Source: an uncultured Syntrophomonadaceae bacterium (lineage in GTDB: Bacteria; Bacillota; Dethiobacteria; DTU022). From it: 64,000 nucleotides of DNA. The notes below the pieces were generated by a model that was not told the DNA's origin, did not search any database, and saw only the letters and a list, made by a program, of their open reading frames with translations. Where the stretch lies: NCBI GenBank assembly GCA_964492615.1, contig CAZBKZ010000002.1:1323-65322 (forward strand), given 5' to 3'. Each line of letters starts with the position of its first letter. The stretch's first letter is position 1. A program made the translations under genes and the position numbers. Positions 13,010 through 53,366 of the stretch are shown here, in pieces.

Positions 13010-16000
13010 TTGAAACGAAGGGATTTTCTTAAACTTACCGGAGTAACTGGCGCAGGCTTGCTCCTTACCGACCTTGGGTTTAACGCAGCGCCGGTTGAAG
13101 CCGCATCTCAAACGATCAGAATTCACAATTCAGAAGAATTTTATTCTGTTTGTACTTTTTGTTCTTGCGGCTGCGGGATGATTTGTAGCGTTAAAGATGG
13201 GAAAATGATTAACCTTGAAGGTGACCCTGATCATATCGTCAGTGAGGGGGCCCTCTGCAGTAAGGGGGCAGCTATGGCGGTAATGCCCAACTCTGATCAA
13301 CGGATCAGGAACCCTCTCTACAGGGCGCCGCGCAGCAACAAGTGGGAAGAAATCAGCTGGGAAGAAGCTATCGACAAGGTTGCCAGGAAATTTGTTGAAA
13401 CCAGGGACGATTACTGGATCAGCGATGAGACTATTGACGGTACCACTTATAAGGTTAACCGCTGCGACGCAGTTAGCTTCATGGGCGGAGCTCAAAACAA
13501 TACAGAGGAATCATATCTCCTTTCTAAGATGTCGAGAATTCTGGGCGCCGTGTATGTAGAGCACCAGGCCAGGGTCTGACACAGTCCCACGGTCGCCAGT
13601 TTAGGCGCCTCATTAGGACGTGGAGCTATGACCAATCACTGGGTTGATTTAAAAAATGCCAAGGTCTTCCTGATCCAGGGTAGCAATGCTGCCGAGAATC
13701 ACCCCATGGCAGTAAAATGGATGCTGGAAGCAAAGAAAAAAGGGGCAATCATTATTCATGTCGACCCCCGTTACACCAGGACCTCATCCATTGCCGATAT
13801 TCATGCCCAGATTCGTCCGGGTGCGGATATCGCATTTCTAAATTCAATTATTAACTACATTATTACCAATAACCTTTATGATGAAGACTTTGTTATTAAC
13901 CATACCAATGCGCTATTGATTGCCAACGAAGAATTCGATTACCAGGACGGCCTTTTTTCGGGCTATAATGACGGTAAATTCAGTTACACCAACCTTTCCT
14001 GGGGTTATACCCTTGATGAAGAAAGCAAGCCTATTAAGGCGGAAAGTCTCGATGATCCTCGCTCTGTCTTCAGCAAAGCCAAGGAATTCTTCAAGCGCTA
14101 TGATTTTAAGGTGGCTTCCGATATCTGCGGGGTTCCCGAGGAAAAGATCAAGCTAATTGCCGATACCCTGGTTAACAATAAGCCTGGAACAATCTGCTAC
14201 GCCCTGGGGATGACCCAGCATACTACCGGCGTTCAGGGGATTCGTTCTTTCGGTATTCTCCAAATGCTCTTAGGGAACCTGGGCAAGCCGGGCAGCGGTG
14301 TTAACGCCATGCGTGGTGAGCCCAATGTGCAGGGAGCAACCGATATGGCCATGTTGTTCCATATCATTCCCGGGTACCTGGCTGTTCCCAACCACGATGT
14401 CGTGGATCTTGATACTTGGACTTCGCGGACCGGTACTTTTCGCCGGACTTTTATGACCAGTATTCTCAAAGCGTGGTTTGGTGACCACGCCCAACCGGAA
14501 AATGATTTTTGTTTTAATTGGTTACCGAAAAAGAACGGGCGTGAAAACTACTCACTCTTCAGGATCTTTGAGACAGCCCTTGATAAAAAGATGAAGTTTC
14601 TCTATATCATGGGTCAGAACCCCATGGTTACCAACCCTAACCTGAACCTGGTGCACGAATCACTGGGCAACCTGGATATGCTGGTTTCTGTTGACCTCTT
14701 TATGACCGAAACCGCCGCTTTCTGGGAAAAACCGGGTGTGGATCCGAGTACGCTTGATACGGAGGTAATTTTCCTCCCTGCGGCCTCTTTCCTCGAAAAA
14801 GAAGGAACCCTGGTTAATTCAGGGCGGATGGTTCAGTGGCGCTATACCGGGATTAAACCGGTCGGCAATTCAAAAACCGACCTGGAGATCATTGATTTGC
14901 TTTTTAACCGCATCCGCGAGCTTTACCAGGGTTCAAGCGACAGCAAGGATGAGCCCATTTTAAAGGCCAACTGGAACTACGAAGCAGAAGATTCTCCCTC
15001 TTTCTCAGAGGAAGTATTGAAGGAAATCAACGGTTACAATCTGGCCACCGGTGAACTCTTAAAAGGGATTGGCGAACTTAAGCCTGACGGAACCACTGCC
15101 GCGGGGAACTGGCTGTATGCCGGAATCTTCGCCAACAACCAGAACCATTCCAAGCGCAAGGATAACATTAACGATCCCGGCGGCCTTGGCATCTATCCCG
15201 GCTTTGCCTGGACCTGGCCCGGAAACTGTCACGTCTTATATAATCGTGCGTCTTGTGATGCTGAAGGTAAGCCTTATGATGAAGCCAATAAGTGTATCTG
15301 GTGGGATGAGGAAAAGGGTATGTGGACCGGGTATGACACTCCCGACGTGCCGAACAGGAACGACGGACCCGATACACCCAACGGCAAAAGACCCTTCCGG
15401 ATGGCCGGGGAAGGTCTCGCCCGTATTCTTGCCGGGCCCTACCAGGATCCCTTTGCCAATCAGCTTCTGCCCAGGGATTCATCAAGCGTCCCTGCCGACG
15501 GCCCGCTTCCGGAGCACTATGAACCCTTTGAGAGCCCTACAGAAAACGTTTTGCATCCCAACGTCCCAGTCAACCCCTGTGTTAAGTATCCCCGAATTCC
15601 GGATAAGCAGCCAATCGGTACGGCAGCGGATTACCCCTACGTTCTCTGTACATCAAGCATGGCAGAGCACTGGTGTGCCGGGACTCAAACCCGTAACATG
15701 CCCTGGTTAAACGAACTGCAGCCAGAAACATTTATTGAAATACCGAAAAACCTGGCTGCCGAAAAGGGCATCAAGAATGGTGACTGGGTAAAAGTCTGGT
15801 CTGCCCGGGGCGAAGTTGAGGCCAAGGCCCAGGTAACCCACCGTATCCATCCCCTTAAAATTAACGGCAAGGAGGTTGATGTGGTCTGGATGCCGTATAA
15901 CTGGGGATACAAGGGCCTTAGTCAGGCTGCCAGCACAAACTATGTGACTATTGATGCAGGCGATCCGAATACCTGGATCCAGGAAACAAAGTGTTGTCTG

Positions 16001-16021
16001 GTAAACCTGGATAAGGCTTAA
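13010..16021 (+). CDS. fdhA: Formate dehydrogenase catalytic (alpha) subunit. It is a selenoprotein (in-frame UGA = Sec at 13577-13579) with a Tat signal.
   Basis: Twin-arginine signal MKRRDFLKLTGV. Fe-S motif CTFCSCGCGM. Track ORFs 13010..13579 and 13628..16021 are in the same frame and are joined by HQARV-U-HSPTVASLG, the classic Sec motif. The molybdopterin domains follow. Confidence 0.9.
13591..13609 (+). ncRNA. Bacterial SECIS upper stem-loop for fdhA (cis-acting mRNA element).
   Basis: Hairpin GGUCGCC-AGUUUA-GGCGCC with a bulged U. It begins exactly 11 nt 3' of the UGA, the spacing seen in E. coli fdhF. A GU is present in the apical loop. Confidence 0.55.
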
Positions 16022-32714: not shown

Positions 32715-33098
32715 ATGTCCCGGGAAGAAAAAAGTCTGGATCTGATTGCTTTGTTTCACCATGTTCTGGCAATTATCACCGGAATTACAGCATTAACTCC
32801 CATAATTCATTTTATATTCGGGGTGATGTTGCTCAATGTGGAAAGTGGTGCAGGTGATCCGGCACCAAGAGTTTTTGCCCTTATATTTATTATTTTATCT
32901 ACACTGATAATCCTGGCCGGGTGGACGCTTGCTGTTTTAATATTCATAGCCGGGAATAAAATCAGGAACAGGCAATCTTATAATTACTGCATGATAATTG
33001 CTTTTATCGAGTGTCTATTGCTTCCCCTGGGGCCTATCCTGGGTATTTATACTATTATTACTTTGAACAAGGAAGAATACATTTATCTATTTGAGTGA
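32715..33098 (+). CDS. Small integral membrane protein, hypothetical.
   Basis: Three or four predicted TM helices. AAGGAGA RBS. Confidence 0.55.
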   Translation: MSREEKSLDLIALFHHVLAIITGITALTPIIHFIFGVMLLNVESGAGDPAPRVFALIFIILSTLIILAGWTLAVLIFIAGNKIRNRQSYNYCMIIAFIECLLLPLGPILGIYTIITLNKEEYIYLFE

Positions 33099-33118
33099 GA
33101 TTGAAAGGGGTACTCCAG

Positions 33119-34303
33119 ATGAAGAGCGACCTTATTGTCAATCAGGCCAGGACTGTCCTGGATGAGGTTATTGCCTGGCGGCGGGAATTACACCGTATTC
33201 CAGAGCTTGGATTTGAGCTTTTTAAAACATCGGCTTTTATAAAAAAACAGCTCAATTGTTTAAATATACCCTGCCAGGTTATGGCAGAAACCGGCCTGGT
33301 TGCCCTGGTTGAGGGTGGAGAACCAGGGCCGACCCTGGCTTTTCGCGCTGATATGGATGCCCTGCCGATTAAAGAAGAAACCGGCCTTCCTTATGCTTCC
33401 GATAATGGGAATATGCATGCCTGCGGACATGACGCGCATGCTGCGATGCTGTTGGGGGCATCTAAAATATTAAGCGCGAACAGGGATAAAATAAAGGGCA
33501 GGGTCAAATTGATTTTCCAGCCCGGAGAAGAGGGCTATGGGGGAGCCCAGAAGATGATAGAGGAAGGCTGCCTGGAAAATCCCGGTGTAGATGCAATCTA
33601 TGGACTTCATGTCGGGCAGATATTTCCCGAAGTCGGTCTCGGGCAGGTGGGAGTTTGTTCGGGCACCATTCTGGCCGCGGCAACCGCTTTTACTGTAGAA
33701 GTTATAGGAAAAAGTACTCATGGAGCTCTTCCCCACCTGGGTGTGGACAGCATTACCACCGCGGCCGAGATGATTACATCACTGCAAAAAATCATCAGCC
33801 GTGAGATTAATCCTCTTGAAACAGCAGTGTTGACTATTGGAAAGATAGAGGGAGGGGAGGCGATAAACATCGTTACCCCCAGGGTTGAATTCAGCGGCGA
33901 TTTTAGGACAATAGACCAGGAAAACCGCCATTATATAACCGGCCGTGTAAAAGAAATATGTGCCTCTGTTGCCGCTGCAAACAGGGCTAAGGCAGAAGTA
34001 AAAATAATTGGCGGTTATCCGCCTACTGTTAATCATCCTGCTTTTGCTGAAAAAGTAACCGCAGTCGCAGAACAAGTGGTTGGCTCTAATAATGTGGTCA
34101 GTATCCTTAAACCAAATATGGGAACGGAAGATATGTCTCTATACCTTGAAAAAGTACCCGGCGCCTTTTTTATGCTGGGAACCGGTAATCCCGAACGGGG
34201 TTTTATTTATCCTCATCACAACTCCAGGTTTGATCTCGATGAGTCGGCGCTTTGGATTGGTCCGGCCATTTTCACAACCCTGGCTCTAGATTATCTGAAC
34301 TGA
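33119..34303 (+). CDS. M20D-family amidohydrolase (N-acyl-amino-acid amidohydrolase / hippuricase-like).
   Basis: M20 metal-ligand motifs (HACGHDAH, GEEGYGGAQ). ATG 33119 has an AAAGGGG RBS. Confidence 0.8.
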   Translation: MKSDLIVNQARTVLDEVIAWRRELHRIPELGFELFKTSAFIKKQLNCLNIPCQVMAETGLVALVEGGEPGPTLAFRADMDALPIKEETGLPYASDNGNMHACGHDAHAAMLLGASKILSANRDKIKGRVKLIFQPGEEGYGGAQKMIEEGCLENPGVDAIYGLHVGQIFPEVGLGQVGVCSGTILAAATAFTVEVIGKSTHGALPHLGVDSITTAAEMITSLQKIISREINPLETAVLTIGKIEGGEAINIVTPRVEFSGDFRTIDQENRHYITGRVKEICASVAAANRAKAEVKIIGGYPPTVNHPAFAEKVTAVAEQVVGSNNVVSILKPNMGTEDMSLYLEKVPGAFFMLGTGNPERGFIYPHHNSRFDLDESALWIGPAIFTTLALDYLN

Positions 34304-34339: not shown

Positions 34340-35161
34340 TTGTTAAAAGCAGATTCTTTTTTTGATACCGATAGCGAACTATTCCGTGAGTTGTTTGCTG
34401 AAACCTTATATGTTTGGGATGGCCTGGCCAATATCGGACAGTTTCTTGAAAATAATTTACAACCTAACAGTGCCGCCGTGCGAAAAGGCTCTGCCCAGAT
34501 TAGCAGGGATACCATACTTTACAGGGGGGAAATCCTTGTTGATGATTTCAGAATTGACAGCAGCGGAAAGAAAATAAAAGTTTATATGAATGATGAAATT
34601 CTGGAAGGCGCTACTGTAATTTATGCTGGTTCTTACCTGATGGATGATCATATATTTCTGGGCAGTGGAGTTGTTGTTGAACCATCGGCCCTGATCCGCG
34701 GCCCGTCCCTCATTGGTGACAATACGGAGGTAAGACATGGAGCCTATATCCGCGGGCAGGTGATTACAGGAGAGGATTGTGTTGTGGGTCATGCTACGGA
34801 AATAAAGTCTTCCGTAATGCTGGGGGGCAGTAAGGCCGGCCATTTTGCTTATATCGGCGACAGTATTCTTGGCCGGGTTAACCTGGGTGCTGGAACAAAA
34901 CTGGCCAACCTGAAAATGAGTGGAACCCCCGTGAATCTTCATGTCGATGGTAGGCTTTATCAGACCGGGTTACGCAAGTTTGGGGCGATCCTGGCAGATG
35001 GAGTTGAAACAGGATGCAACAGTGTTACCTCTCCGGGAACATTGCTCGGTAAGAATGTTATGCTTTATCCCAACGGGGCGGCCCGCGGTTTTTATCCTGC
35101 CGACACAATAATCAGGGTAAGACAAAAACATGATATGGGTCGGGTTGAAATGGATAAATGA
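34340..35161 (+). CDS. Left-handed beta-helix acetyltransferase resembling the GlmU C-terminal (GlcN-1-P N-acetyltransferase) domain. It lacks the uridyltransferase domain.
   Basis: Hexapeptide repeats. SKAGHFAYIGDSILGRVNLGAGTKLAN parallels the GlmU acetyltransferase core. TTG start with a G-rich RBS. Confidence 0.65.
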   Translation: MLKADSFFDTDSELFRELFAETLYVWDGLANIGQFLENNLQPNSAAVRKGSAQISRDTILYRGEILVDDFRIDSSGKKIKVYMNDEILEGATVIYAGSYLMDDHIFLGSGVVVEPSALIRGPSLIGDNTEVRHGAYIRGQVITGEDCVVGHATEIKSSVMLGGSKAGHFAYIGDSILGRVNLGAGTKLANLKMSGTPVNLHVDGRLYQTGLRKFGAILADGVETGCNSVTSPGTLLGKNVMLYPNGAARGFYPADTIIRVRQKHDMGRVEMDK

Positions 35162-36063
35162 ACAGCGATAATGTTGATTTGCTAAGGGAAAAAGGTCCTT
35201 TACTCGGCAAAGAGTTTGCTGTTTTGAGCGGCCTTGATATTTATCCTGCCTGGAAGTATTGCAGAGGAGCAAAAGAGATAATAAGTGTGTTGGTGGGAAA
35301 CAGATATCTTCGCCTTGATGCCAGGGTTAAGGGATATGCCCGCCTGTCACCGTCGATTATGCGCGAATTCTTAAATTACACTGTAGTTGGACTCTCTGAA
35401 CAGAAAAAAGAAATTGATGATAAAACAAAAAAACTTAATAAAGAGATAAATTCAATCAGTGCTGCAAAAATTGATCTGGCCCGCAGGACGGTGAAGAAAA
35501 TGATCGTTTCTCATCCGGAAAGTGCGCTTATTCTGGAGAAAACATGTATGACTATTGCCGGTGATGTTGTTTTTAACATGGCACACGCCGAACCGAGGCC
35601 GGAGTCATCAACAGGCGAACTGGTTAAAGGTTCCGACCTGGATATTATAGTGATCACCGATGGCTTGCCCTTTCATATAAGTAACGATCTGGATCAGATC
35701 TTTTATCATGAAAAGTATAACCTGCTAATGAATCCGGCCCTGAAAGAGGAGCTGGATTATGTAATTAAAAATGTATCTGTAATTAGCGAGCAACTGCACT
35801 TTAATAATTTCAAGAACATGGTCGCCTCAAAAATACTGGATGAAGGGCAATTTCTGTACGGGAACCCGGAACTTTTTAACCAGGTTAAATCAATGGTTGC
35901 CAAAGCCTCAATATCTTCGAAATTACTTAGTTTAACCAGGAAAGCAGAAGCAGATCGGTTACTTGCCGAGCAGACCCTGTCCGATGCCGGCCGGCTGGCA
36001 GCGGCTGATGAAGAACTTATGACATTGTTTTACACAACAGAAGAAAAAGAAGAAATATTTTAA
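35158..36063 (+). CDS. Pol-beta-superfamily nucleotidyltransferase-domain protein.
   Basis: GSDLDIIVITDG NTase motif. The start overlaps the upstream stop (ATGA), suggesting translational coupling. Confidence 0.6.
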   Translation: MNSDNVDLLREKGPLLGKEFAVLSGLDIYPAWKYCRGAKEIISVLVGNRYLRLDARVKGYARLSPSIMREFLNYTVVGLSEQKKEIDDKTKKLNKEINSISAAKIDLARRTVKKMIVSHPESALILEKTCMTIAGDVVFNMAHAEPRPESSTGELVKGSDLDIIVITDGLPFHISNDLDQIFYHEKYNLLMNPALKEELDYVIKNVSVISEQLHFNNFKNMVASKILDEGQFLYGNPELFNQVKSMVAKASISSKLLSLTRKAEADRLLAEQTLSDAGRLAAADEELMTLFYTTEEKEEIF

Positions 36064-36078
36064 AATGACAGGAGAAAT

Positions 36079-36804
36079 ATGATAATTATTACCGTTCAAA
36101 ACTACAGCGAGCTGAGTATTAAAGCAGCTGATATTGTTGCTTCCGAAATTGTGAATAATGGCCGGACAGTGCTTGGAATGGCAACAGGTTCTACTCCGGA
36201 AGGTATGTATGCAGAACTGGTTAAACGCTTCAAAAGCGGGATGATTGATTTTCGGGATGTGGTTTCATTTAACCTCGATGAATATCTTAGCCTGCCACCC
36301 GATCACAAGCAAAGTTATCATTATTACATGAAAAATAAATTCTTTAAACATATCAATATCAGGACGGAAAATGTGAATTTGCTTTCCGGATCAGCCAGGA
36401 ATCCTGAACTGGAATGCTCCAGTTACGATGCTAAAATAAAAGATGCAGGGGGAATTGACCTTCAAGTCCTTGGTATAGGTTCCAACGGACACATTGGCTT
36501 TAATGAGCCTGCTGACACACTTTCGGTTAATACTCATCTTGTTGAATTATCCCCGGATACAGTTCAGGATAACAGCCGTTTTTTTGGGACCGCCGAACAG
36601 ATTCCTGAAAGAGCCATCACAATGGGTATGGGGTCAATTATGTCTGCCAAAAAAATTGTTCTTCTTGCATCGGGAACAGGAAAAGCCAGGGCAATAAAAA
36701 ACATGTCAGGCGGGAAGGTTACGACAAAAGTACCGGCTTCATTACTTCAGCTCCATCGTGATGTTACAGTTATCGTTGACCACGCTGCAGCATCGCTGCT
36801 TTAA
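36079..36804 (+). CDS. nagB: Glucosamine-6-phosphate deaminase.
   Basis: NagB family: GMATGSTP, LDEY, GIGSNGHIGFNEP. Confidence 0.9.
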   Translation: MIIITVQNYSELSIKAADIVASEIVNNGRTVLGMATGSTPEGMYAELVKRFKSGMIDFRDVVSFNLDEYLSLPPDHKQSYHYYMKNKFFKHINIRTENVNLLSGSARNPELECSSYDAKIKDAGGIDLQVLGIGSNGHIGFNEPADTLSVNTHLVELSPDTVQDNSRFFGTAEQIPERAITMGMGSIMSAKKIVLLASGTGKARAIKNMSGGKVTTKVPASLLQLHRDVTVIVDHAAASLL

Positions 36805-36885
36805 TGTTCACCATGCCGGAGAAACACCGGCAAAAACAGGGACATCATGTTATACTGATATCAAAGATACAGTCGAGGTGAAAAA

Positions 36886-39800
36886 ATGGATTCCGGTTTC
36901 AAGTCGGGGGCGCTTGAAGTTAACCTGGCCAAGACCAGGCATAAACAGACTGAGCTGCCTCAGGAACACCAGTGGTTTGTCTCGCTTTCTTCTTCATACT
37001 GGGGGATTAATAAGCGAACGGAGGAACTATTCCGTGAATTGAATCACCCTCACCCCAATTACTCTTTTATTATTGAAAATTTGCATACTATCTGCCTTAC
37101 TGATTTATGGCTTTACAATTCGCTGAATCAATCTGAAAAAGCGCTATCATTCCTTTTAACTCTTTTTAGCGATCTGTTTGGAAAAGATTTACATGAAAGA
37201 GAACGGGAGCAGTTGATCAAAACTCTGTTCAAGTTTATAGATCGTCTTTTAAATGAAGGCAATTACCCTGAAGACATAGTCAGGCTGTCATTAAGCCTGG
37301 TCGAAAAAGAAGTGTCTGGGCATGAAGAACTTTTTATCAGGAATGCCGGTTATTTTAAAAAATACCTGGCCAGGGCAGCTGTAATCCCCGGGTTTGAGCC
37401 GACAGTTTGCAGAATGACTAAAGATATACTTTTAAAAAGCTGTGCTTATTGGGCTGAAACAACTCAAACTGAAGAGTGGTTTGCAAGTAAAACGGCCCTT
37501 TTTTCCCCGGTGTATGATAAAAAAATTGGCAGGATCGGCAAGCCTTTTTTTAAAGATCTTGAAGAAAACATAAAGAGTTCCCGGACATGGGAAGAGATCA
37601 CTTCGAACCTTTTTTTCAATGACATAGCTAACCATTTTCGTCATTTTAGTGAAGTGTTTGAACTATCCGTTGAAAAAACATATTACCTGGTATTCATTTT
37701 ACATTTGCCCGGCATGTCGCAGTTGAATAAACATTTACTCTATGACCTTAATCGGTTACTGAAAAGCGCCTTACAGGAGTTGGATGAGAAAGGTATCTTT
37801 CATTATGTGGACCTGCTCTTTTCACTTTTCGGCGAACTAAAAAACCGGCAGACGGATATTGTTCTGGATTGCCTGTTTACACTGGGCAAAGAAATAGTGG
37901 AAATTGATCACTACCGGCTAACTTCTCATTACATGCAGAGACTGATCGAATTTGGCTTTATTTATCCCGGAGCTCTGGAAGTAAATGATGAATGGGCGAT
38001 TGAAGCCAACAGTAATCACGTAAAAAACATTCGTATCTGGCTTGACCTGATCGAAACCTCTCCCTATAAATTTAAAAAACTACTTTCTGCACTGGTTGTT
38101 AATCTTAAACTGGGCGGAATTTTCATTGCCGATACCGACCTGTTCCAGCGTGATGTAACCAGGCTTTTAAATGCAGATATAAGTCCTGTCTATAAACAGG
38201 TTAAGCAGTTGGCCCGCTTTTTCCCGGTTTATTTTAATGAAATAGGGGCTGAGGGAAAACTGCGTGATGTAAGTACTTATATCGATGAACTTACGGGACG
38301 CAAAGACCGTTTAATTCATTTTGTCCGCAAGCAGATTCACAGTGAAAGTAATAATACCCATATTGAGCTGGTCAGGAAAGTAGCTGTCTTCTGGTTTAAC
38401 GGGGATAAAAAAATGCTTAAAAAAATTATTCCTCCCGATGTATTTGTTTCTCTTGAGTTGGATACTGCTTATTTCAGGGGAGTAAACAACCTGATGACTG
38501 CTGCCTGCCGGCATTTTGCCCTCAAGGCCGAAGAATTACTGCTGTTAGATGAAGAACAAATCGATTCCTTTATCAATCAAAGGACAGCTGCAACTGAAAG
38601 GGATAAAAAGCGTTTCATTTTACTGGTTCAATTATACCAGCTGCTGCTTGAAAAATATTCGTTTGAGTCACGTGATATCAGTGGTTTGTTGATGAAAAGC
38701 CGTTTCTTCGGCGAAGAAGAGATCGAACAATTGATTGGTAAAATTAATCATAAGCTATATCGTGAAGCATTGGAACAGATCTTTGGATTCATGAAGGTGC
38801 TTAAGGATGTAATACTCGATAAAACTACAACGGAGGCGGTTGAGACTATTTATTACAAGCGCCATATCGCTGCCGGCATACCCTCTATGTATGGGCAGTA
38901 TAAAGAACCAAAATTTGAAGCGCTCGGCTTAATGTACAGGCTCGAACAGTTAGCTTCACGGCAGTTTGAAATGATCCTGGAAGAAATAAAGCTGGAATAC
39001 ATATCAGCGAAAACACTCAATAGCGTCTATGAGACCCTGGTACTTTTCAAGGAAGGGTTGGAACTTGACGGCATGGTAAACCAGAATTTTAATTCAACCC
39101 TGGAAATGTTTCGTTACAGTCTTACTTCAACCAGTGTTACCCTCGGTCAGTTTATGAACATATTTCGCTTTATGGCTCAACATATAAAGGAATTGATCAA
39201 TGAATATTTTATAAGGGTTTACGATGAAACAATCAATGTAGTCATTCCTCAGGTTTATAGTGCTGATAGGGAAACTGTGGCAAGGGAGTCTGAAATGTTC
39301 TATCGCGTTATTCTTTCTTCAGCATTTCTGGTCAGGGAACTGGATCAATTTATCGCCGGTTCGCTGAGTATGATCAATAATATGCTGGAGAATTACTCGG
39401 AAGCGCATATCCATAACATGATGAGTTATAATCCCGATCTTGCGATAAGCTCTTTAAACAGAGACACGGAAATAATGGATAACCAGGTTTTCCTGGGAGC
39501 CAAAGCTTACTATCTAAAAAAGCTGATCAAATACGGTTTTCCCATCCCTCCCGGTTTTGTCTTAACCACAGAGGTCTATCGTCATAAAGAAACTATCTTT
39601 GAACATCCCTACATGAATTATGAACTTGAATTGATGCTTGATGAGAACCTGACTGAACTGGAAAAACAAACCGGGCTTAAATTTGGCAGTACTGAAAAGC
39701 CGATGCTTCTATCGGTTCGCTCTGGAACGGCAATTTCAATGCCTGGTGCAATGAGCACTTTTTTAAATATTGGTATGAACGATCAGGTGGCAGAGGCTCT

Positions 39801-40950
39801 TGCCAGGAAGCCTTCGACTGCCTGGATGGGTTGGGATTCATACCGGCGGTTTATTCAAAGCTGGGGAATGTCCCATGGTGTTGATCGTGATTGTTTTGAT
39901 GAGGTTATGACCATGATCAAAGCTAAATACGGAGTTGACCGTAAGTCGAACTTCAGTGCGGTTCAGATGAAAGAGCTGGCCCTGGAATACAAGCAGGTGT
40001 TAAGTGGTCATGGAATCCCAGTAGTTAATGACCCCCGGGAACAATTGCGGCAGGCAATAGATAATGTATTTAACTCCTGGTCTTCCGGGCGGGCAGTTGC
40101 TTACCGCAAACATCTCCAGATTGCCGACCAGTGGGGCACCGCAGTTTTAGTGCAGAAAATGGTTATGGGCAATCGCTCGAAACATTCCGGTTCCGGGGTG
40201 GTCTTCACCCATAATCCCAAGTTGAAAAAACCGGGTATCAATCTTTACGGTGATTTCACCCTTTGCAGCCAGGGTGAAGATATCGTTGCCGGTTTGGTTT
40301 ATCCCCTTCCTGTTTCCGAGAGCCAGCGTAACAGTGATGAGAAAAATAAAGATATATCGCTGGAAAAGGCTTTCCCCGCTATCTTTAAACGTTTAAGATC
40401 GATAGCTGTAGAGTTGATAGAGAAACATAGTTTTAATAACCAGGAGATTGAATTTACCTTTGAATCTGAACACCCTGAAGATCTATATATTTTGCAGATC
40501 AGGGAACAGAACATCGTGCAGCCGGAAAAAATGGCAGTTTTTAGCGATTCTGGCGGTGATATGAAAATAATTGGTAAGGGAATAGGTGTGGGGGGTGGCT
40601 GCATGAGTGGAGTGGTTGCTTTTGACATGGCAGATCTGGATGACAATCTGAAAAAATGTCCAGGGGAAAAACAAATTCTGATCAGGCCTGACACTGTGCC
40701 CGACGATATTCAGATGATCTTTAAATGTGATGGATTAGTGACCAGCAGGGGAGGTGTAACGTCTCATGCTGCCGTGGCAGCAGAAAAGCTGGGAAAAGTA
40801 TGTATAGTCAGCTGTAAAGATCTGACCGTTGATGAGCGAAAAAAACAGGGTGAATTCAATGGTTTTGTGATCAGGCCGGGCGACGCAATATCGATTGATG
40901 GTAACTGGGGTGGTATTTATGCTGGTAGTTACCCCGTTGAATACATATAA
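36886..40950 (+). CDS. Large (1354 aa) PEP-utilising-enzyme-family protein. It carries the PPDK-type N-terminal ATP-grasp nucleotide-binding domain and the phospho-histidine swivel domain, but no PEP/pyruvate TIM-barrel. A novel ~830-aa helical N-terminal region precedes them.
   Basis: FLGAKAYYLKKLIKYGFPIPPGF, SVRSGTAISMPGAMSTFLNIGMND and FTHNP...YGDFTLCSQGEDIVAG match the PPDK N-terminal domain. GGVTSHAAVAAEKLGKVCIV is the phospho-His motif. The protein ends 90 aa later. Confidence 0.75.
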   Translation: MDSGFKSGALEVNLAKTRHKQTELPQEHQWFVSLSSSYWGINKRTEELFRELNHPHPNYSFIIENLHTICLTDLWLYNSLNQSEKALSFLLTLFSDLFGKDLHEREREQLIKTLFKFIDRLLNEGNYPEDIVRLSLSLVEKEVSGHEELFIRNAGYFKKYLARAAVIPGFEPTVCRMTKDILLKSCAYWAETTQTEEWFASKTALFSPVYDKKIGRIGKPFFKDLEENIKSSRTWEEITSNLFFNDIANHFRHFSEVFELSVEKTYYLVFILHLPGMSQLNKHLLYDLNRLLKSALQELDEKGIFHYVDLLFSLFGELKNRQTDIVLDCLFTLGKEIVEIDHYRLTSHYMQRLIEFGFIYPGALEVNDEWAIEANSNHVKNIRIWLDLIETSPYKFKKLLSALVVNLKLGGIFIADTDLFQRDVTRLLNADISPVYKQVKQLARFFPVYFNEIGAEGKLRDVSTYIDELTGRKDRLIHFVRKQIHSESNNTHIELVRKVAVFWFNGDKKMLKKIIPPDVFVSLELDTAYFRGVNNLMTAACRHFALKAEELLLLDEEQIDSFINQRTAATERDKKRFILLVQLYQLLLEKYSFESRDISGLLMKSRFFGEEEIEQLIGKINHKLYREALEQIFGFMKVLKDVILDKTTTEAVETIYYKRHIAAGIPSMYGQYKEPKFEALGLMYRLEQLASRQFEMILEEIKLEYISAKTLNSVYETLVLFKEGLELDGMVNQNFNSTLEMFRYSLTSTSVTLGQFMNIFRFMAQHIKELINEYFIRVYDETINVVIPQVYSADRETVARESEMFYRVILSSAFLVRELDQFIAGSLSMINNMLENYSEAHIHNMMSYNPDLAISSLNRDTEIMDNQVFLGAKAYYLKKLIKYGFPIPPGFVLTTEVYRHKETIFEHPYMNYELELMLDENLTELEKQTGLKFGSTEKPMLLSVRSGTAISMPGAMSTFLNIGMNDQVAEALARKPSTAWMGWDSYRRFIQSWGMSHGVDRDCFDEVMTMIKAKYGVDRKSNFSAVQMKELALEYKQVLSGHGIPVVNDPREQLRQAIDNVFNSWSSGRAVAYRKHLQIADQWGTAVLVQKMVMGNRSKHSGSGVVFTHNPKLKKPGINLYGDFTLCSQGEDIVAGLVYPLPVSESQRNSDEKNKDISLEKAFPAIFKRLRSIAVELIEKHSFNNQEIEFTFESEHPEDLYILQIREQNIVQPEKMAVFSDSGGDMKIIGKGIGVGGGCMSGVVAFDMADLDDNLKKCPGEKQILIRPDTVPDDIQMIFKCDGLVTSRGGVTSHAAVAAEKLGKVCIVSCKDLTVDERKKQGEFNGFVIRPGDAISIDGNWGGIYAGSYPVEYI

Positions 40951-40986
40951 TAATAATCATGATAATACCTGGGAGGTGGTTGCCTG

Positions 40987-42240
40987 ATGAACGAAGTTAT
41001 GCAGAACAGAAAAAAACTAGGTATAAACGGCATTGGTCGGATTGGCAAATTAACCCTTTGGCAGCATTTAAGCAGCGGTCATTTTAATGCTTTTATCATT
41101 AACACGGGCCGTAATGTGGGCACAAAACTGGAGGATATTATTGATTACCTGCTCAAGGATTCCACCTACGGTTCACTGGATCGTTTTCTTTACGGGTATA
41201 GTGGTAGATGCGTGGAAGTGGAAATTGTCGACCGGAGCCAATCTCTATTTTCAATCGATGGGATTCCGGTTAAAATTTTAACCAGTGAGCGCAATCCCCG
41301 TGATATAAACTGGGCCAGAGAAGGGGTCCAACTGGTTGTCGAGTCGACCGGCACATTTATTGATCCGGTTGCTCCTGCCGACAAACCTGGCGGCAGCGCG
41401 AGAGGCCACCTTGAAGCAGGCGCTGAAAAAGTAATTGTAAGCGCACCTTTTAAAATTGCCGATAGTGCTCAAAAAATGCCGCCTGACAGTGCCATGTTTG
41501 TTTACGGGATTAACCACGATAAATATGATCCCTGCGAGCATCATATCCTTTCAGCTGCAAGCTGTACTACTACCGGGTTGGCCCACATGATTAAACCTTT
41601 ACTTGAAACAAGGGAAACTAAAGATATAGTTACGGCATCCATGTCAACCGTGCATGCGGCCACTAACAACCAGAACATCCTCGATAATGTGCCTAAAAAT
41701 GGCACAGATGATCTGAGGAAAAGCCGTTCAGTATTTAATAATATTATTTTGACTACCACAGGTGCAGCGAGAGCTCTTGAAGAAATACTGCCTGGCATTA
41801 AAAGTATCGGCTTTATGGCTGACTCGGTGCGTATTCCAACCAGCACTTCCTCCCTGATAATGCTTAATATCACCTTTAAAACCAGGCTCAATGAAACCGG
41901 TGAACCCCAGGTAAACCGCGACCTGATTAATGATATATATAGAAAAGCAGCCGCTGGAGCCCAGAAGAATATGGTTGTTTACAGTGACAAGCAAAATGTT
42001 TCCTCCGACCTGGCCGGTTACCCGGCGGCAGTTATTGTTGAAGGAGTTGAAACTCACACACGAACCGGGTTTATATCCCTGGACTCTGCCACCTTGAACG
42101 AATGCGGGGTTCAGGCTTCCTGCGATATCAATATACCGGTAACACATGCTAAAATTTTCGGATGGTATGATAATGAGCTGGGTAGTTATGTAAACTTTTT
42201 GAGTCGGCTTACAATATACGTTGAAAAGAACATGCCCTGA
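40987..42240 (+). CDS. Divergent glyceraldehyde-3-phosphate dehydrogenase-family protein (417 aa).
   Basis: INGIGRIG (NAD fold), catalytic SAASCTTTGLAH, STVHAAT, and WYDNELGSY. It has insertions relative to canonical GapA. Confidence 0.7.
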   Translation: MNEVMQNRKKLGINGIGRIGKLTLWQHLSSGHFNAFIINTGRNVGTKLEDIIDYLLKDSTYGSLDRFLYGYSGRCVEVEIVDRSQSLFSIDGIPVKILTSERNPRDINWAREGVQLVVESTGTFIDPVAPADKPGGSARGHLEAGAEKVIVSAPFKIADSAQKMPPDSAMFVYGINHDKYDPCEHHILSAASCTTTGLAHMIKPLLETRETKDIVTASMSTVHAATNNQNILDNVPKNGTDDLRKSRSVFNNIILTTTGAARALEEILPGIKSIGFMADSVRIPTSTSSLIMLNITFKTRLNETGEPQVNRDLINDIYRKAAAGAQKNMVVYSDKQNVSSDLAGYPAAVIVEGVETHTRTGFISLDSATLNECGVQASCDINIPVTHAKIFGWYDNELGSYVNFLSRLTIYVEKNMP

Positions 42241-42266
42241 TTATTTCAGCTGAAAGGAAATTATTA

Positions 42267-43403
42267 ATGCCGGGAAAAAGTGTACCTATTGTTTCAGTAA
42301 CTGCCTGCAGCAGGTATGATTATAAAGATCTGAAAAAAGCCTTAAATTTTTTATTTGAACCTGCCGGAGGAATAAACAACTTAGTTTCAGCAGGGCAAAA
42401 AGTACTGTTAAAGCCTAACTTGCTGGCCGCAGCTCACCCTTCTGAAGCAGTAACCACCCATCCCATGGTGATCAAAGTTATGGCAGATTTGATCAGGGAA
42501 GCCGGGGGGCAGGTTTACATTGGCGACGGTCCGGGCAGCGATGAGCAGGAATATGCCCACAGGGTGGCCGGTTATGAAAAAATCTGTGAAGAAACCGGTG
42601 CGAAATTGCTTATTTTCCGGGAGATTATAGAAAGTGTGGCTCCTAATACTCCCAGTTTAATTTTGCCCCTGGCTGCCGAACTGGAACAAGTTGACCTGGT
42701 AATTAACGCAGCCAAGTTTAAGACACATCCCCTGACCGGAATGACCGCAGCAGTAAAAAATATGTATGGTGTCGTAGCAGGTAAAAATAAAAAACGGTTT
42801 CACCTTGAACATCCTCTGCCGCTTGATTTTTCCAGGGTTTTAATTGAAGTATGCCTTGCTGCAAAACCGGCTTTTTCAATTATTGATGCAGTTGTGGCTA
42901 TGGAAGGTCTCGGCCCGCGTCGCGGTAAACCGAGGCAGGTCGGTTTGCTGCTCGGATCGGTTAATCCGTTTGCTCTTGACCATGTAATGGCTGAAATTGC
43001 CGGTTTCAGAACAGAACAGGTTACTACTTTAATGGTCGCAGAGCAGATGAATATACCCGGATCGAAATCGGAAGAAATAACAGTACACGGTTTAAATACT
43101 GATCAATGCTTTCTGAAAAATTTTGATCGGGGAGCACTGACAGAAGGCCGTGTAAATCGCTTGCTGACAAATTTACCCCTGGCCTGGTTAAGAAACATGT
43201 TGTATGCGCGCAGGCCTTATCCATACATTGACCAGGAATTTTGCACTTCTTGTGGTGAATGCCTGGAAAACTGTCCGCTCCAGATCATAACAGCGGAAGG
43301 GAAAATTCCGGAAATAGATCATTATGAATGTATTCGCTGTTACTGCTGCCAGGAGGTTTGTGCCAGCGGGGCTATTAAACTGAGCAGGAACATCATCACC
43401 TGA
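42267..43403 (+). CDS. DUF362-domain protein with a C-terminal 2x[4Fe-4S] ferredoxin.
   Basis: DUF362-like N-terminus (VLLKPNLL...GDGPG). CTSCGECLENCP and CIRCYCCQEVC. Confidence 0.7.
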   Translation: MPGKSVPIVSVTACSRYDYKDLKKALNFLFEPAGGINNLVSAGQKVLLKPNLLAAAHPSEAVTTHPMVIKVMADLIREAGGQVYIGDGPGSDEQEYAHRVAGYEKICEETGAKLLIFREIIESVAPNTPSLILPLAAELEQVDLVINAAKFKTHPLTGMTAAVKNMYGVVAGKNKKRFHLEHPLPLDFSRVLIEVCLAAKPAFSIIDAVVAMEGLGPRRGKPRQVGLLLGSVNPFALDHVMAEIAGFRTEQVTTLMVAEQMNIPGSKSEEITVHGLNTDQCFLKNFDRGALTEGRVNRLLTNLPLAWLRNMLYARRPYPYIDQEFCTSCGECLENCPLQIITAEGKIPEIDHYECIRCYCCQEVCASGAIKLSRNIIT

Positions 43404-43435: not shown

Positions 43436-43966
43436 TCACTCGTTTTCATTTTCATGCTGTAGCTGAATCTGGTTCATCTGATCCCAGAGATCAGGAGGAA
43501 CCAGAATTTTTGCATTTTCTTCAGCTCTGGCAGCAGAAGCCTGCAGATGATCGGCCAAGTCAGAAAAAGCCGGTGTGCTGTATTTTTGTCCCCCGGCGGT
43601 TACTGAAAGAGTCACCAGTGAACCACCATCTACAGAATCGCCGCCGGGCCAATCGTTACTGAGGAGGCCGTTATCAAGCAGTAATAGATAAAGGTTATCT
43701 AAATCTCCCGGGCTGACAGGGAAAGACTCAACCATTGATTTTTCCCCATCTCCTGTTTTATAAGAGATTCGTCCCTCATTCCCAGGTCCAATGGTTATTA
43801 CATATGAGTATTGCATCCAGGGGTCGGGCATTATCCCAGTGGCCCAGTTAAGCTGCAGTAAAAAGTCACCCGGTCTTTCCGCGGGAGGCTGTGCGGGTGC
43901 ATCACCAGGCATCCTGCCGCATCCGCTGAGGAAAAAAAACAACAAAAAGAGGGTTACTATTCTCAT
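43436..43966 (-). CDS. Hypothetical lipoprotein.
   Basis: Signal peptide plus lipobox LSGC. AAGGAG RBS. Confidence 0.6.
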   Translation of the reverse strand: MRIVTLFLLFFFLSGCGRMPGDAPAQPPAERPGDFLLQLNWATGIMPDPWMQYSYVITIGPGNEGRISYKTGDGEKSMVESFPVSPGDLDNLYLLLLDNGLLSNDWPGGDSVDGGSLVTLSVTAGGQKYSTPAFSDLADHLQASAARAEENAKILVPPDLWDQMNQIQLQHENENE

Positions 43967-43969
43967 TTT

Positions 43970-44464
43970 TTACTCCTTGTAATCCAGCTTGAATATAATT
44001 TTATCGTCATAAATCTCTTTCAGTATAATTGTAAGGCTGCTGCCCTGGTCATTGAAATAGTAAAAAACCTGTTCCTGCCCTCTTGTAACTGACATCCTGT
44101 CCGGATCAAATGTCCAGTCAAATGAAGTGCCGCTTTCCCTGCGGGCATTCATGTAAAAATTATTTGCCCTTGAAATTTGTAAATTGCCAAATCCTGCAGC
44201 AGTCATGCCGGTTTCGCATCTTTCATACCTGGTAACCCTAAACTCGTTCATCACTGCAGGAACTTCCCGCGGCCAGTCAGCAGGCGTACTGAAAAAATCG
44301 AACAGCACCTCTTCTTCAGCAATAACAAGCCATTCATTATCATCCAGGTTATCATCGTAAATATCAGTATCTTCCGGAGGGATTGTTTGCCCCGAGCAGG
44401 CGTAGAGAGACATAATACCTACGATTAAAACAATAGGCATAATTGTTTTTCGCTTACCAAACAT
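43970..44464 (-). CDS. Hypothetical lipoprotein.
   Basis: Lipobox YACS. GGGGGAGG RBS. Confidence 0.6.
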   Translation of the reverse strand: MFGKRKTIMPIVLIVGIMSLYACSGQTIPPEDTDIYDDNLDDNEWLVIAEEEVLFDFFSTPADWPREVPAVMNEFRVTRYERCETGMTAAGFGNLQISRANNFYMNARRESGTSFDWTFDPDRMSVTRGQEQVFYYFNDQGSSLTIILKEIYDDKIIFKLDYKE

Positions 44465-51913: not shown

Positions 51914-52151
51914 TTTGTAACCCCTGGTGCTATAGTATTGCAATGAAGATACCTCCCTCGATTAATTTTTTTGATTATATCAAATTAAACAACTTGCTGC
52001 TTGTGGATTGTTCGCATAAAATGGTTAGTGTCGGCATTTTCCTGTGGCAGGCCTGGTCAATAAATACCGGGTTATGCTTTTCCCGGCAGATGTTGAACCG
52101 TTCAGGAGACAGGTAAAATCGCCATATTCCAGTAAGGGGTGTGAACAGAAA

Positions 52152-53366
52152 GTGAAATATTTAGTGATTCTGGGAGACGGTATGTCCGATTATCCCAATG
52201 ATCTATTCGGGGGCAAAACCGCTCTTCAATTCGCCCGCACGCCAAATCTTGATCGTATTGCTGCTGAAGGTGAGATTGGCCTGGTTAAAACAATTCCGAA
52301 GGGTTTGCCGCCGGGTAGCGATACAGCAAATCTTTCCGTAATCGGTTATGATCCGAACCTTTATTATACAGGAAGATCACCATTTGAAGCGGCCAGCCTT
52401 GGTATTGAACTGCTGCCTGAAGATGTTTCCTTCCGCTGCAACCTGGTCACCCTGTCGGGCGAAAACAGTTACAGGGATAAAAGCATGGTTGATTATGCTG
52501 CAGGCGAGATATCAACAGCTGAAGCCGGAGAGTTAATCCAGTCAATTGCAGCTGCGCTGGAAACAGAAATGATCAAGTTCTACAGGGGGTTTCGCTACCG
52601 TCACATTATGGTTTGGCGGGGAATAGCGGACCAATGGAACTTAACCCCGCCTCATGATATCAGCGGGCGGGCAATAGGCAAGTATCTTCCAGCCGGTGTC
52701 AAAGCAGATCAGCTGACCGATATTATGGAGAAAAGCAGTGTAATCCTTTCTGAACATCCGGTTAACCTGAAAAGATTTGAGAAGGGGCTTAATCCGGCTA
52801 ACTCGATCTGGATCTGGGGTAATGGACGCAGGCCTTTGCTACCTTCATTCAAAAAAGTTTACGGTTTAAATGGTGCGGTTATTTCTGCTGTTGATTTAAT
52901 CAAGGGCCTGGGAATTCTTGCCGGATTGGATAGTATAAATGTTGATGGCGCAACCGGCGATATTGATACTAACTATGAAGGCAAGGTATCGGCTGCCCTG
53001 TCAGCATTAAAAGGCGGGCATGATTTTGTTTACTTGCACGTTGAGGCTCCTGATGAATGTTCTCATCGCTTTGAAGCGGGAAACAAGGTCAGGGCAATTG
53101 AGCTGATTGATGAAAAAGTAGTCCAGCCTTTATGGAGTGACCTGGAGAAGAACGGCATAGAGTTTTCCCTATTGCTTGCTGCAGATCACGCCACACCTCT
53201 TTCTCTTGGAACGCACACGGATGATCCGGTTCCCTATGCTATTTATCGGAGCAACAAGTCCGGAAAAGTTGGAAAATTTAGGTATGATGAAAAAAGTGCA
53301 TCCGAGAGCGGGATTTGTTTTGAAGAAGGCTATAAACTGATGAAACATTTTTTACAGCAGGAATAA
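52152..53366 (+). CDS. Cofactor-independent phosphoglycerate mutase, archaeal type (ApgM-like). This family is proposed as a non-orthologous homoserine kinase.
   Basis: VKYLVILGDGMSDYP metalloenzyme N-terminus. GTG 52152 has an AAGGGGTG RBS. Divergent from thrC. Confidence 0.75.
   Translation: MKYLVILGDGMSDYPNDLFGGKTALQFARTPNLDRIAAEGEIGLVKTIPKGLPPGSDTANLSVIGYDPNLYYTGRSPFEAASLGIELLPEDVSFRCNLVTLSGENSYRDKSMVDYAAGEISTAEAGELIQSIAAALETEMIKFYRGFRYRHIMVWRGIADQWNLTPPHDISGRAIGKYLPAGVKADQLTDIMEKSSVILSEHPVNLKRFEKGLNPANSIWIWGNGRRPLLPSFKKVYGLNGAVISAVDLIKGLGILAGLDSINVDGATGDIDTNYEGKVSAALSALKGGHDFVYLHVEAPDECSHRFEAGNKVRAIELIDEKVVQPLWSDLEKNGIEFSLLLAADHATPLSLGTHTDDPVPYAIYRSNKSGKVGKFRYDEKSASESGICFEEGYKLMKHFLQQE

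Follow-up and report, generated by a model that had tools for sequence, protein, structure and literature searches.

What does a pyruvate, phosphate dikinase (PPDK) do when it lacks the domain that binds phosphoenolpyruvate (PEP) and pyruvate, and what is the role of the divergent glyceraldehyde-3-phosphate dehydrogenase (GAPDH) encoded directly behind it? The question is raised by a run of six genes in DNA from an uncultured Syntrophomonadaceae bacterium (contig CAZBKZ010000002.1 of assembly GCA_964492615.1, positions 1,323 to 65,322), a stretch of 64,000 nucleotides referred to here as the window. A sequence-only reading of this DNA had described six co-directional open reading frames (ORFs) with gaps of at most 81 nt and one 4-nt overlap, and had united them in a single amino-sugar or phospho-sugar route involving ferredoxin-linked redox. 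The coordinates and spacing are as claimed: a 4-nt overlap is followed by gaps of 15, 81, 36 and 26 nt. The genes encode, in order, a left-handed beta-helix (LbH) protein, a winged helix-turn-helix nucleotidyltransferase (wHTH-NTase) and NagB, together called the triad; a 1354-aa PPDK-like protein, PPDKL; a 417-aa GAPDH-like protein, GAPDHL; and a DUF362 iron-sulfur protein. Comparison with other genomes makes it very probable that the region consists of three adjacent units, namely the triad, the PPDKL–GAPDHL pair and a DUF362 add-on, with the pair as the core. PPDKL and GAPDHL probably work together. Of the single-pathway proposal, the pair stands as a real unit that joins a phosphoryl-transfer enzyme to a dehydrogenase, while the six-gene sugar route with ferredoxin redox does not.

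A search with PPDKL against one genome per GTDB species yielded 28 loci, and look-ups of exact proteins raised the total to 45; synteny across these loci was mapped by tblastn. All 29 loci with room for it have GAPDHL downstream of PPDKL, at a distance of less than 300 nt. On three large contigs from Clostridia, whose PPDKL is about 53–58% identical to that of the window, every neighbour has changed except the adjoining GAPDHL of 417–418 aa. The association extends to a distant sample of five PPDKL members at 27–35% identity, four of which have a GAPDH-like gene of 409–453 aa downstream (three immediately, one about 1 kb off); of these four, one stems from a seawater metagenome, one from an unknown lineage and one from a diderm lineage, and one is a hemerythrin-fused form. 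The single exception (P0429, L040) has no GAPDH-like neighbour, and in this protein the catalytic histidine is replaced by tyrosine. Clustering of all flanking ORFs revealed no further universal partner of PPDKL. The neighbourhood analysis proposed in the earlier reading, with PPDKL as query, gave a divided answer. Triad, pair and DUF362 gene occur together in close relatives, within Syntrophomonadaceae/Dethiobacteria, and the complete gene order is retained in the closest of them (L001, L002, L007, L011, L014 and L026); beyond these the cluster splits, distant lineages retain PPDKL and GAPDHL only, and the pair alone is universal.

A boundary between the triad and the pair is also suggested by the DNA between nagB and PPDKL. 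When the 110 nt upstream of PPDKL were aligned across loci, an extended −10 element of the form TGnTATAMT was found within 100 nt upstream of the gene in 21 of 28 loci, compared with an average of 0.26 and at most 3 in shuffled sequences and a background rate of 0.0096 per 100 nt. The element is placed 38–73 nt before the PPDKL start, distant Clostridia and Sumerlaeota included. A generic promoter and terminator scan did not rise above shuffles; the signal emerged from the cross-locus comparison alone. Because this element is conserved upstream of PPDKL, the pair, joined in this lineage by the DUF362 gene, would form a transcription unit of its own, and transcription may in addition read through from nagB into PPDKL.

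PPDKL is, as had been noted, a PPDK-like protein without the PEP/pyruvate domain. Its residues 866–1342 comprise PPDK_N and the PEP-utilizers mobile domain (PF01326, 104 bits; PF00391, 63 bits), no match to the PEP/pyruvate TIM barrel (PF02896) was found in the protein, and its end lies 12 residues past the position aligned to PPDK residue 509, at the point where the PPDK linker to the barrel would start. Residues 861–1354 match C. symbiosum PPDK (1kbl) with 280.5 bits as a single sequence and with 351 bits as a family profile, as against 72 bits for PEP synthase and 27 bits for rifampin phosphotransferase. Among the NCBIfam models, TIGR01828 gives 369.6 bits (cut-off 843); the second-best, the 534-position 'pyruvate, phosphate dikinase' model NF004531, gives 283.7 bits (cut-off 456), and the rifampin phosphotransferase (RPH) model NF041857 gives 28.9 bits (cut-off 999). 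The equivalents of PPDK residues Lys22, Arg92, Glu323, Gln335 and Arg337 are retained, Asp321 is replaced by Glu, and the Thr-Ser-His motif with His1294 is kept in 26 of 28 aligned family members. The dikinase half is complete, and the residues that ATP- and Mg-dependent autophosphorylation of the catalytic histidine would require are in place. Judged by this domain composition, PPDKL cannot bind PEP or pyruvate in the PPDK way.

For the N-terminal 860 residues, no Pfam match was obtained up to E = 5 and no PDB relative by sequence and profile search, the PDB matches being confined to the PPDK part. Their AlphaFold model (pLDDT 85, pTM 0.76) is nearly all helical, with one beta-hairpin at residues 652–673, and resembles HEAT/ARM scaffolds only. 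An exhaustive search of 1.84 billion representatives returned 482 relatives of this part of the protein, and because nearly all full-length ones measure 1335–1540 aa, the domain occurs only in fusion with this dikinase module. Its larger region, N2, is almost as conserved as the catalytic domains, and N1 is the most variable: at the level of Clostridia, identity is 52% in N2, 57% in the ATP-grasp domain and 56% in the histidine domain, and at the far edge of the family it is 31%, 46% and 43%, respectively. Three N2 motifs, which read DTDLFQRD, FPVYFxEIGAEGKLR...HFxRKQxHxESNN and IYYKRHIAxGIPSMYGQYxEPKFEALG in the window protein, stay near-invariant down to 27% identity as DTDLFQ(R/K)D, FPVYFxxIGAEGxLR..ST..DE...R.D..HFxRKQxHxESN and IYxKRHIAxGIPSMYGxYxExKFEAxG, the last of them sitting on the N2 beta-hairpin. 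N2 is a candidate second active site or docking domain. A homology of DTDLFQ to the GTNDLTQ motif of PEP-utilizer barrels was considered and ruled out, as the model is all-alpha with a single hairpin.

In a distant branch of the family a hemerythrin domain substitutes for N1. Two such proteins, P0429 (L040, 1166–5788) and P0418 (L045, 6001–10368), have this hemerythrin domain at the N-terminus instead of the first ~260 residues; P0418 retains its GAPDH-like neighbour, and a V-type ATPase operon comes next. A different setting is found in a diderm lineage (L042–L044, 1–12680), where a 1425-aa PPDKL stands right after lptB-rpoN-hpf-ptsN-rapZ-EIIA(man)-GNAT and a 453-aa GAPDH-like gene lies 1 kb downstream of it. 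In other bacteria the slot after ptsN-rapZ-EIIA often holds the gene for a phosphocarrier of the nitrogen phosphotransferase system.

GAPDHL was aligned with the GAPDH of T. thermophilus and across its own subfamily. The earlier call of a divergent GAPDH-family protein agrees with its best family match by far, type I GAPDH (TIGR01534), which it hits with 301.6 bits, under the cut-off of 367.2; erythrose-4-phosphate dehydrogenase is matched with 115 bits. Equivalents of the GxGxxG motif, Ser148-Cys149-Thr150, His176, Thr179, Thr208-Gly209 and Arg231 are retained, the catalytic residues being Cys193 (codon 41563–41565) and His223, and the motifs SAASCTTT, TVHAAT, TTTGAA and VRIPT do not vary within the subfamily, which holds for the partners of the most distant PPDKLs too. 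Since the catalytic and phosphate-site residues are kept, the chemistry of a phosphorylating dehydrogenase acting on a phosphate substrate is predicted to be intact. The NAD-ribose residue Asp32 is replaced by an invariant N-x-G-R, which, from what is known of Rossmann folds, suggests the use of NADP(H). Five insertions are common to all members, the partners of the most distant PPDKLs again included; one is located in the S-loop region, another close to the end of the C-terminal catalytic domain. Over the first 28 loci, identity is 65–91% for GAPDHL and 51–87% for PPDKL. By these alignments, GAPDHL is a distinct, co-inherited GAPDH subfamily of about 409–453 aa.

The best explanation of the region as a whole, to which we give only slightly less than an even chance, combines the three units with a pair that acts as a swivelling-histidine dikinase coupled to an acyl-phosphate reductase; that this coupling is metabolic rather than regulatory is held somewhat more tentatively. 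Such a couple is proposed because the classical pairs of kinase and reductase, phosphoglycerate kinase (PGK)/GAPDH, Ask/Asd, ProB/ProA and ArgB/ArgC, are encoded likewise. The ATP-grasp domain of PPDKL would load His1294 from ATP, yielding AMP and probably pyrophosphate (PPi), and the phosphohistidine domain would then swing to a second site, which N2 would form either alone or with bound GAPDHL. GAPDHL may dock on the solenoid through its insertions. At the second site a carboxylate would be phosphorylated to an acyl phosphate, and GAPDHL would interconvert this acyl phosphate and the aldehyde, probably with NADP(H). Transfer from phosphohistidine to a carboxylate is known in succinyl-CoA synthetase. 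Among dikinases, a swapped or separate substrate module is documented for RPH, HpeHI and PpsAB (PMC12167813).

The best guess at the substrate is the series 3-phosphoglycerate (3-PG), 1,3-bisphosphoglycerate (1,3-BPG) and glyceraldehyde-3-phosphate, because every GAPDH substrate residue is kept in GAPDHL and genes of the 3-PG node recur nearby; the pair would then provide an AMP/PPi-linked bypass of PGK. As circumstantial evidence, serA follows the cluster in 11 fetched loci, or 12 with the window. A gene for an ApgM-type cofactor-independent phosphoglycerate mutase adjoins PPDKL on its upstream side in one lineage (L008, 7934–9136; L009, 9–893; L010, 3363–4568), and an ApgM gene is found 6–9 kb downstream of the pair in the window (52044–53366) and in six relatives, the upstream type being 29% identical to the downstream type. 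The dikinase reaction would be 1,3-BPG + AMP + PPi ↔ 3-PG + ATP + phosphate. From textbook free energies we estimate about −4 kJ/mol for the direction that forms ATP, which is close to equilibrium. Hydrolysis of PPi could pull the step in the gluconeogenic direction, and the glycolytic direction could save energy; either would suit syntrophic, energy-limited anaerobes. The assignment of 3-PG/1,3-BPG as the substrate is doubtful, and the complete PGK-independent route between 3-PG and glyceraldehyde-3-phosphate, in which PPDKL would be a '3-phosphoglycerate, phosphate dikinase' that hands its product to a solenoid-bound, NADP(H)-linked GAPDH, is slightly more doubtful still.

How these proposals fare depends on what else the pair, or the region, could be. 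One amino- or phospho-sugar pathway of all six genes, in which NagB would be combined with acetylation, nucleotidylation, phosphorylation, oxidation and ferredoxin, is very improbable. Co-direction, short gaps and the full order in the six closest relatives named above speak for it, but co-direction and spacing are a weak operon criterion here, because about 40 of the 46 window ORFs of at least 150 aa are on the + strand, the GC skew is positive across the whole window, and the same tight spacing runs on upstream of the LbH gene, where the genes for an M20 amidohydrolase, for a membrane protein of 127 aa and for a GGDEF protein are set apart by 36, −4 and 15 nt. In the 24 loci with more than 3 kb of sequence upstream of PPDKL, the triad is directly upstream in 7, at a distance of 0.4–5 kb in 6 and missing from 11, and is thus absent or separated in 17; a PAS-GGDEF gene is inserted between the NagB and PPDKL genes in L006, L021, L024 and L037 (907 aa in the last). 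In locus L036 the syntenic backbone is intact, with the genes for a histidine kinase, threonine aldolase, aminotransferase, M20, LbH, NTase, NagB, and then serA and a sigma factor gene, and genes for PPDKL, GAPDHL and DUF362 are missing from it. Since the triad is so often apart, L036 lacks the pair, distant genomes have the pair only and a conserved promoter lies inside the run, the six genes are not one pathway operon. For the pair itself, a regulatory role is possible, if rather unlikely. PPDKL would then be an autophosphorylating histidine kinase whose solenoid binds GAPDHL or other metabolic enzymes and adjusts their activity, through phospho-dependent binding or through phosphotransfer, to ATP/AMP/PPi or, in the hemerythrin-fused relatives, to O2 or iron. 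The precedent is VadK (Rv1127c), a PPDK minus the PEP/pyruvate domain, which autophosphorylates on the catalytic histidine and pulls down methylcitrate-cycle enzymes (PMC13400623). The likeness of the N-terminal domain to HEAT/ARM scaffolds, the hemerythrin fusions, the position after lptB-rpoN-hpf-ptsN-rapZ-EIIA in one lineage and the rank of the short model NF004531, the one nearest to a VadK-like architecture, are consistent with such a role. Yet PPDKL scores below the NF004531 cut-off and has 860 extra residues, its N2 region is conserved like the catalytic domains and keeps many invariant charged residues to 27% identity, which is unusual for a pure scaffold, and the partner is a catalytically intact, separate GAPDH subfamily that is more conserved than PPDKL.

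The same dikinase/reductase logic could also serve another substrate, for example 4-phosphoerythronate/erythrose-4-phosphate, a phosphorylated sugar acid or a polymer that the solenoid would hold, as in glucan water dikinase. For a triose, a domain of 860 aa is large, GAPDHL falls under the type I cut-off and has five insertions, one of them in the S-loop region, the GAPDH family includes erythrose-4-phosphate dehydrogenase with its 115-bit match, and the acceptors of dikinases are very diverse (PMC12167813; PMC13553574). Such a substrate is nevertheless doubtful: all residues of GAPDH that bind the C3-phosphate and inorganic phosphate are kept in GAPDHL, type I GAPDH is by far its best family match, and no sugar-acid or polymer genes recur beside the pair. 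Several points tell against a metabolic couple acting on 3-PG as well. The substrate is a guess drawn from conserved residues and neighbours; the proximity of serA is weak evidence, because serA also stands in L036, which lacks the pair; and a cultured relative in the group reportedly encodes the full set of Embden-Meyerhof enzymes (PMC10608574). Moreover, VadK, the truncated PPDK that has been characterised best, is a regulatory autokinase (PMC13400623), and the hemerythrin sensor domain of some distant homologs and the placement of PPDKL after ptsN-rapZ-EIIA in one lineage both hint at signalling.

The triad is probably a separate amino-sugar-related module with an AMPylating or regulatory component. 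Its three genes are contiguous wherever they were found (15 loci including the window, one at a contig edge). The clear function assigned to nagB holds, the protein passing the TIGR00502 equivalog over its full length with 289.1 bits against a cut-off of 236.9. The first protein had been called a stand-alone relative of the GlmU C-terminus, and this too is correct: its C-terminus is a left-handed beta-helix of the type found in GlmU and GMPPB, and the pyrophosphorylase domain of GlmU is absent. It matches the archaeal GlmU model TIGR03992 with 141.7 bits at C-terminal profile positions 245–390 of 393 only, all GlmU models score far under their cut-offs, and its N-terminal ~100 residues have no family match. 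The second gene is translationally coupled to the first. Its product, rightly recognised as a Pol-beta nucleotidyltransferase, consists of an N-terminal winged helix-turn-helix, a long helix and a nucleotidyltransferase fold with the G-[GS] ... D-x-D motif, similar to that of the AMPylases GlnE and DrrA; the match in Pfam/NCBIfam is borderline. Its C-terminal residues 290–300 form a near-invariant acidic tail, FYTTEEKEEIF (LFYTTEEKEEIF), that is predicted to be disordered and could be a docking peptide or a Tyr/Thr self-modification site for an AMPylase-like domain. The family of this protein has 771 members, none of them named. A split GlmU for UDP-GlcNAc, made of the LbH protein and the NTase, is unlikely, as the NTase is of the Pol-beta/GlnE type and not of the sugar-1-phosphate nucleotidylyltransferase fold. 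The triad plausibly serves amino-sugar metabolism together with a protein-modifying or DNA-binding regulator. Upstream of it in the window (32715–34303, + strand), a 127-aa predicted membrane protein gene overlaps the gene of an M20 amidohydrolase (CpsA/DoeB-like) by 4 nt. The M20 gene ends 36 nt before the LbH gene and is directly upstream of the triad in L036 too; in some genomes the triad may extend upstream.

The DUF362 gene, whose product carries DUF362 and two 4Fe-4S motifs in agreement with the earlier call of a DUF362 Fe-S protein, is found behind GAPDHL in 13 of the 21 loci that have room, all of them close relatives, and is absent from all distant loci. Because the gap to GAPDHL measures only 26 nt, the two genes are probably co-transcribed here. 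DUF362 belongs to the same Pfam clan as LarA/DUF2088, which comprises 2-hydroxy-acid racemases (PMC11770544), and this membership is compatible with a (phospho)glycerate-type substrate.

The features described are listed below. The nearest relatives of the window are metagenome-assembled genomes of Syntrophomonadaceae/Dethiobacteria, its matches being uncultured metagenome contigs. Rfam and tRNA scans of the window gave no match. PADLOC found no match for the six genes or for the two hypothetical genes downstream, and a reading of the NTase and LbH genes as a defence system was dropped on this result.

Features of the locus, with positions counted from the first nucleotide of the window
Feature	Position	Strand	Remark
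LbH gene (triad gene 1)	34340–35161	+	273 aa
wHTH-NTase gene (triad gene 2)	35158–36063	+	301 aa
nagB (triad gene 3)	36079–36804	+	TIGR00502
Extended −10 element TGTTATACT	36848–36856	+	within the 81-nt nagB–PPDKL gap, 38 nt before the PPDKL start codon
PPDKL	36886–40950	+	1354 aa
PPDKL region N1, aa 1–260	36886–37665	+	helical, least conserved
PPDKL region N2, aa 261–860	37666–39465	+	alpha-solenoid core, one beta-hairpin
PPDKL ATP-grasp nucleotide-binding domain, PPDK type	39466–40530	+	alignment to 1kbl
PPDKL swivelling phosphohistidine domain, GGVTSHAAV, His1294 (codon 40765–40767)	40531–40950	+	PF00391
GAPDHL	40987–42240	+	417 aa
DUF362 + 2x[4Fe-4S] gene	42267–43403	+	Pfam/NCBIfam

Two convergent genes of 176 and 164 aa on the minus strand (43436–43966 and 43970–44464) lie between the DUF362 gene and serA and break the + run. 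They have no Pfam, NCBIfam or PADLOC match and are conserved in the nearest relatives only (L001, L004). Farther upstream (13010–16021, + strand), ORFs of 189 aa and 797 aa, the latter for a molybdopterin oxidoreductase, share one frame and are split by a TGA at 13577–13579. The surrounding motif EHQARV-*-HSPTVASLG resembles a formate dehydrogenase selenocysteine site, and the two ORFs are probably one selenocysteine-containing formate dehydrogenase alpha subunit of about 1000 aa, which ORF callers would split.

The PPDKL family is large. It comprises at least 1591 clusters when grouped at 90% identity, or 482 when grouped at 50%, spread over Clostridia, Dethiobacteria/Syntrophomonadaceae, Sumerlaeota, diderm lineages and marine metagenomes, and the names of the cluster members include no cultured, studied organism. 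The members are named only 'pyruvate phosphate dikinase' or 'PEP/pyruvate-binding protein' in databases, and GAPDHL is named an ordinary GAPDH; because of this misleading annotation, metabolic reconstructions of the anaerobes that carry the pair may miscount both PPDK and GAPDH. In open-access text no description was found of the pair, of the PPDKL N-terminal domain or of a phosphoglycerate dikinase, an absence that is not proof, and a term search of a review of the PEP–pyruvate–oxaloacetate node gave no hit for PPDK homologs that are truncated or extended. Both the dikinase superfamily and the GAPDH family were known before; the novelty is a dikinase whose acceptor or docking domain is novel and which is locked to a novel GAPDH subfamily. 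Under either mechanism, the N-terminal 860 residues are a new domain family with candidate active-site motifs. The chance that the pair carries out a new central-metabolic reaction is modest. A coupled dikinase and reductase would give lower glycolysis or gluconeogenesis a new step linked to ATP/AMP/PPi, in organisms living close to the thermodynamic limit, and if it were the PGK-independent route, it would be a previously unknown central carbon reaction of energy-limited anaerobes, analogous to PPDK in its relation to pyruvate kinase. A regulatory role would instead mean that the principle of VadK, a PPDK turned into a metabolic kinase, reaches a much larger and older family.

Among known systems, PPDK itself (EC 2.7.9.1; C. 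symbiosum 1KBL/1DIK) shares with PPDKL the ATP-grasp domain, the swivelling histidine domain with GG-x-TSHAAV and the ATP/Mg residues, but its PEP/pyruvate TIM barrel is absent from PPDKL, which adds the N-terminal 860-aa alpha-solenoid. VadK of M. tuberculosis is likewise derived from PPDK, without a PEP/pyruvate domain, with its catalytic histidine kept and with a link to specific metabolic enzymes. At ~50.5 kDa, it apparently has two domains only, going by the masses given, and it is an autophosphorylating histidine kinase that binds the methylcitrate cycle's enzymes and tunes their flux (PMC13400623), whereas the partner of PPDKL is a genomically fixed GAPDH paralog and 860 residues have been added. 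Dikinases of the RPH type, which include rifampin phosphotransferase, HpeHI, CreHI and the phenylphosphate synthase PpsAB (PMC12167813, PMC4844700), combine an ATP-grasp and a swivelling histidine domain with an acceptor module that is not that of PPDK, as in PPDKL. This module may be a different domain or a separate polypeptide (PMC12167813). The RPH-type order is ATP-grasp, acceptor and swivel, while in PPDKL the putative acceptor comes first and is followed by ATP-grasp and swivel; the ATP-grasp domain of PPDKL is moreover PPDK-like and not PEP-synthase-like, unlike that of the RPH-type dikinases.

Type I GAPDH (TIGR01534; T. thermophilus 1VC2, G. stearothermophilus 1GD1) shares with GAPDHL the GxGxxG motif, the catalytic cysteine and histidine and the threonine and arginine of the phosphate sites, but measures ~330–340 aa and has Asp32, whereas GAPDHL has 417 aa, five insertions and N-x-G-R. 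In the classical pairs PGK/GAPDH, Ask/Asd, ProB/ProA and ArgB/ArgC, a phosphotransferase stands beside a Cys-dependent phosphorylating aldehyde dehydrogenase. Their likeness to PPDKL and GAPDHL lies in gene adjacency and, by analogy, in the proposed sharing of a labile acyl phosphate. The kinases of these pairs form ADP, while PPDKL would, as a histidine-swivel dikinase, take ATP to AMP in a step that we infer to be coupled to GAPDHL.

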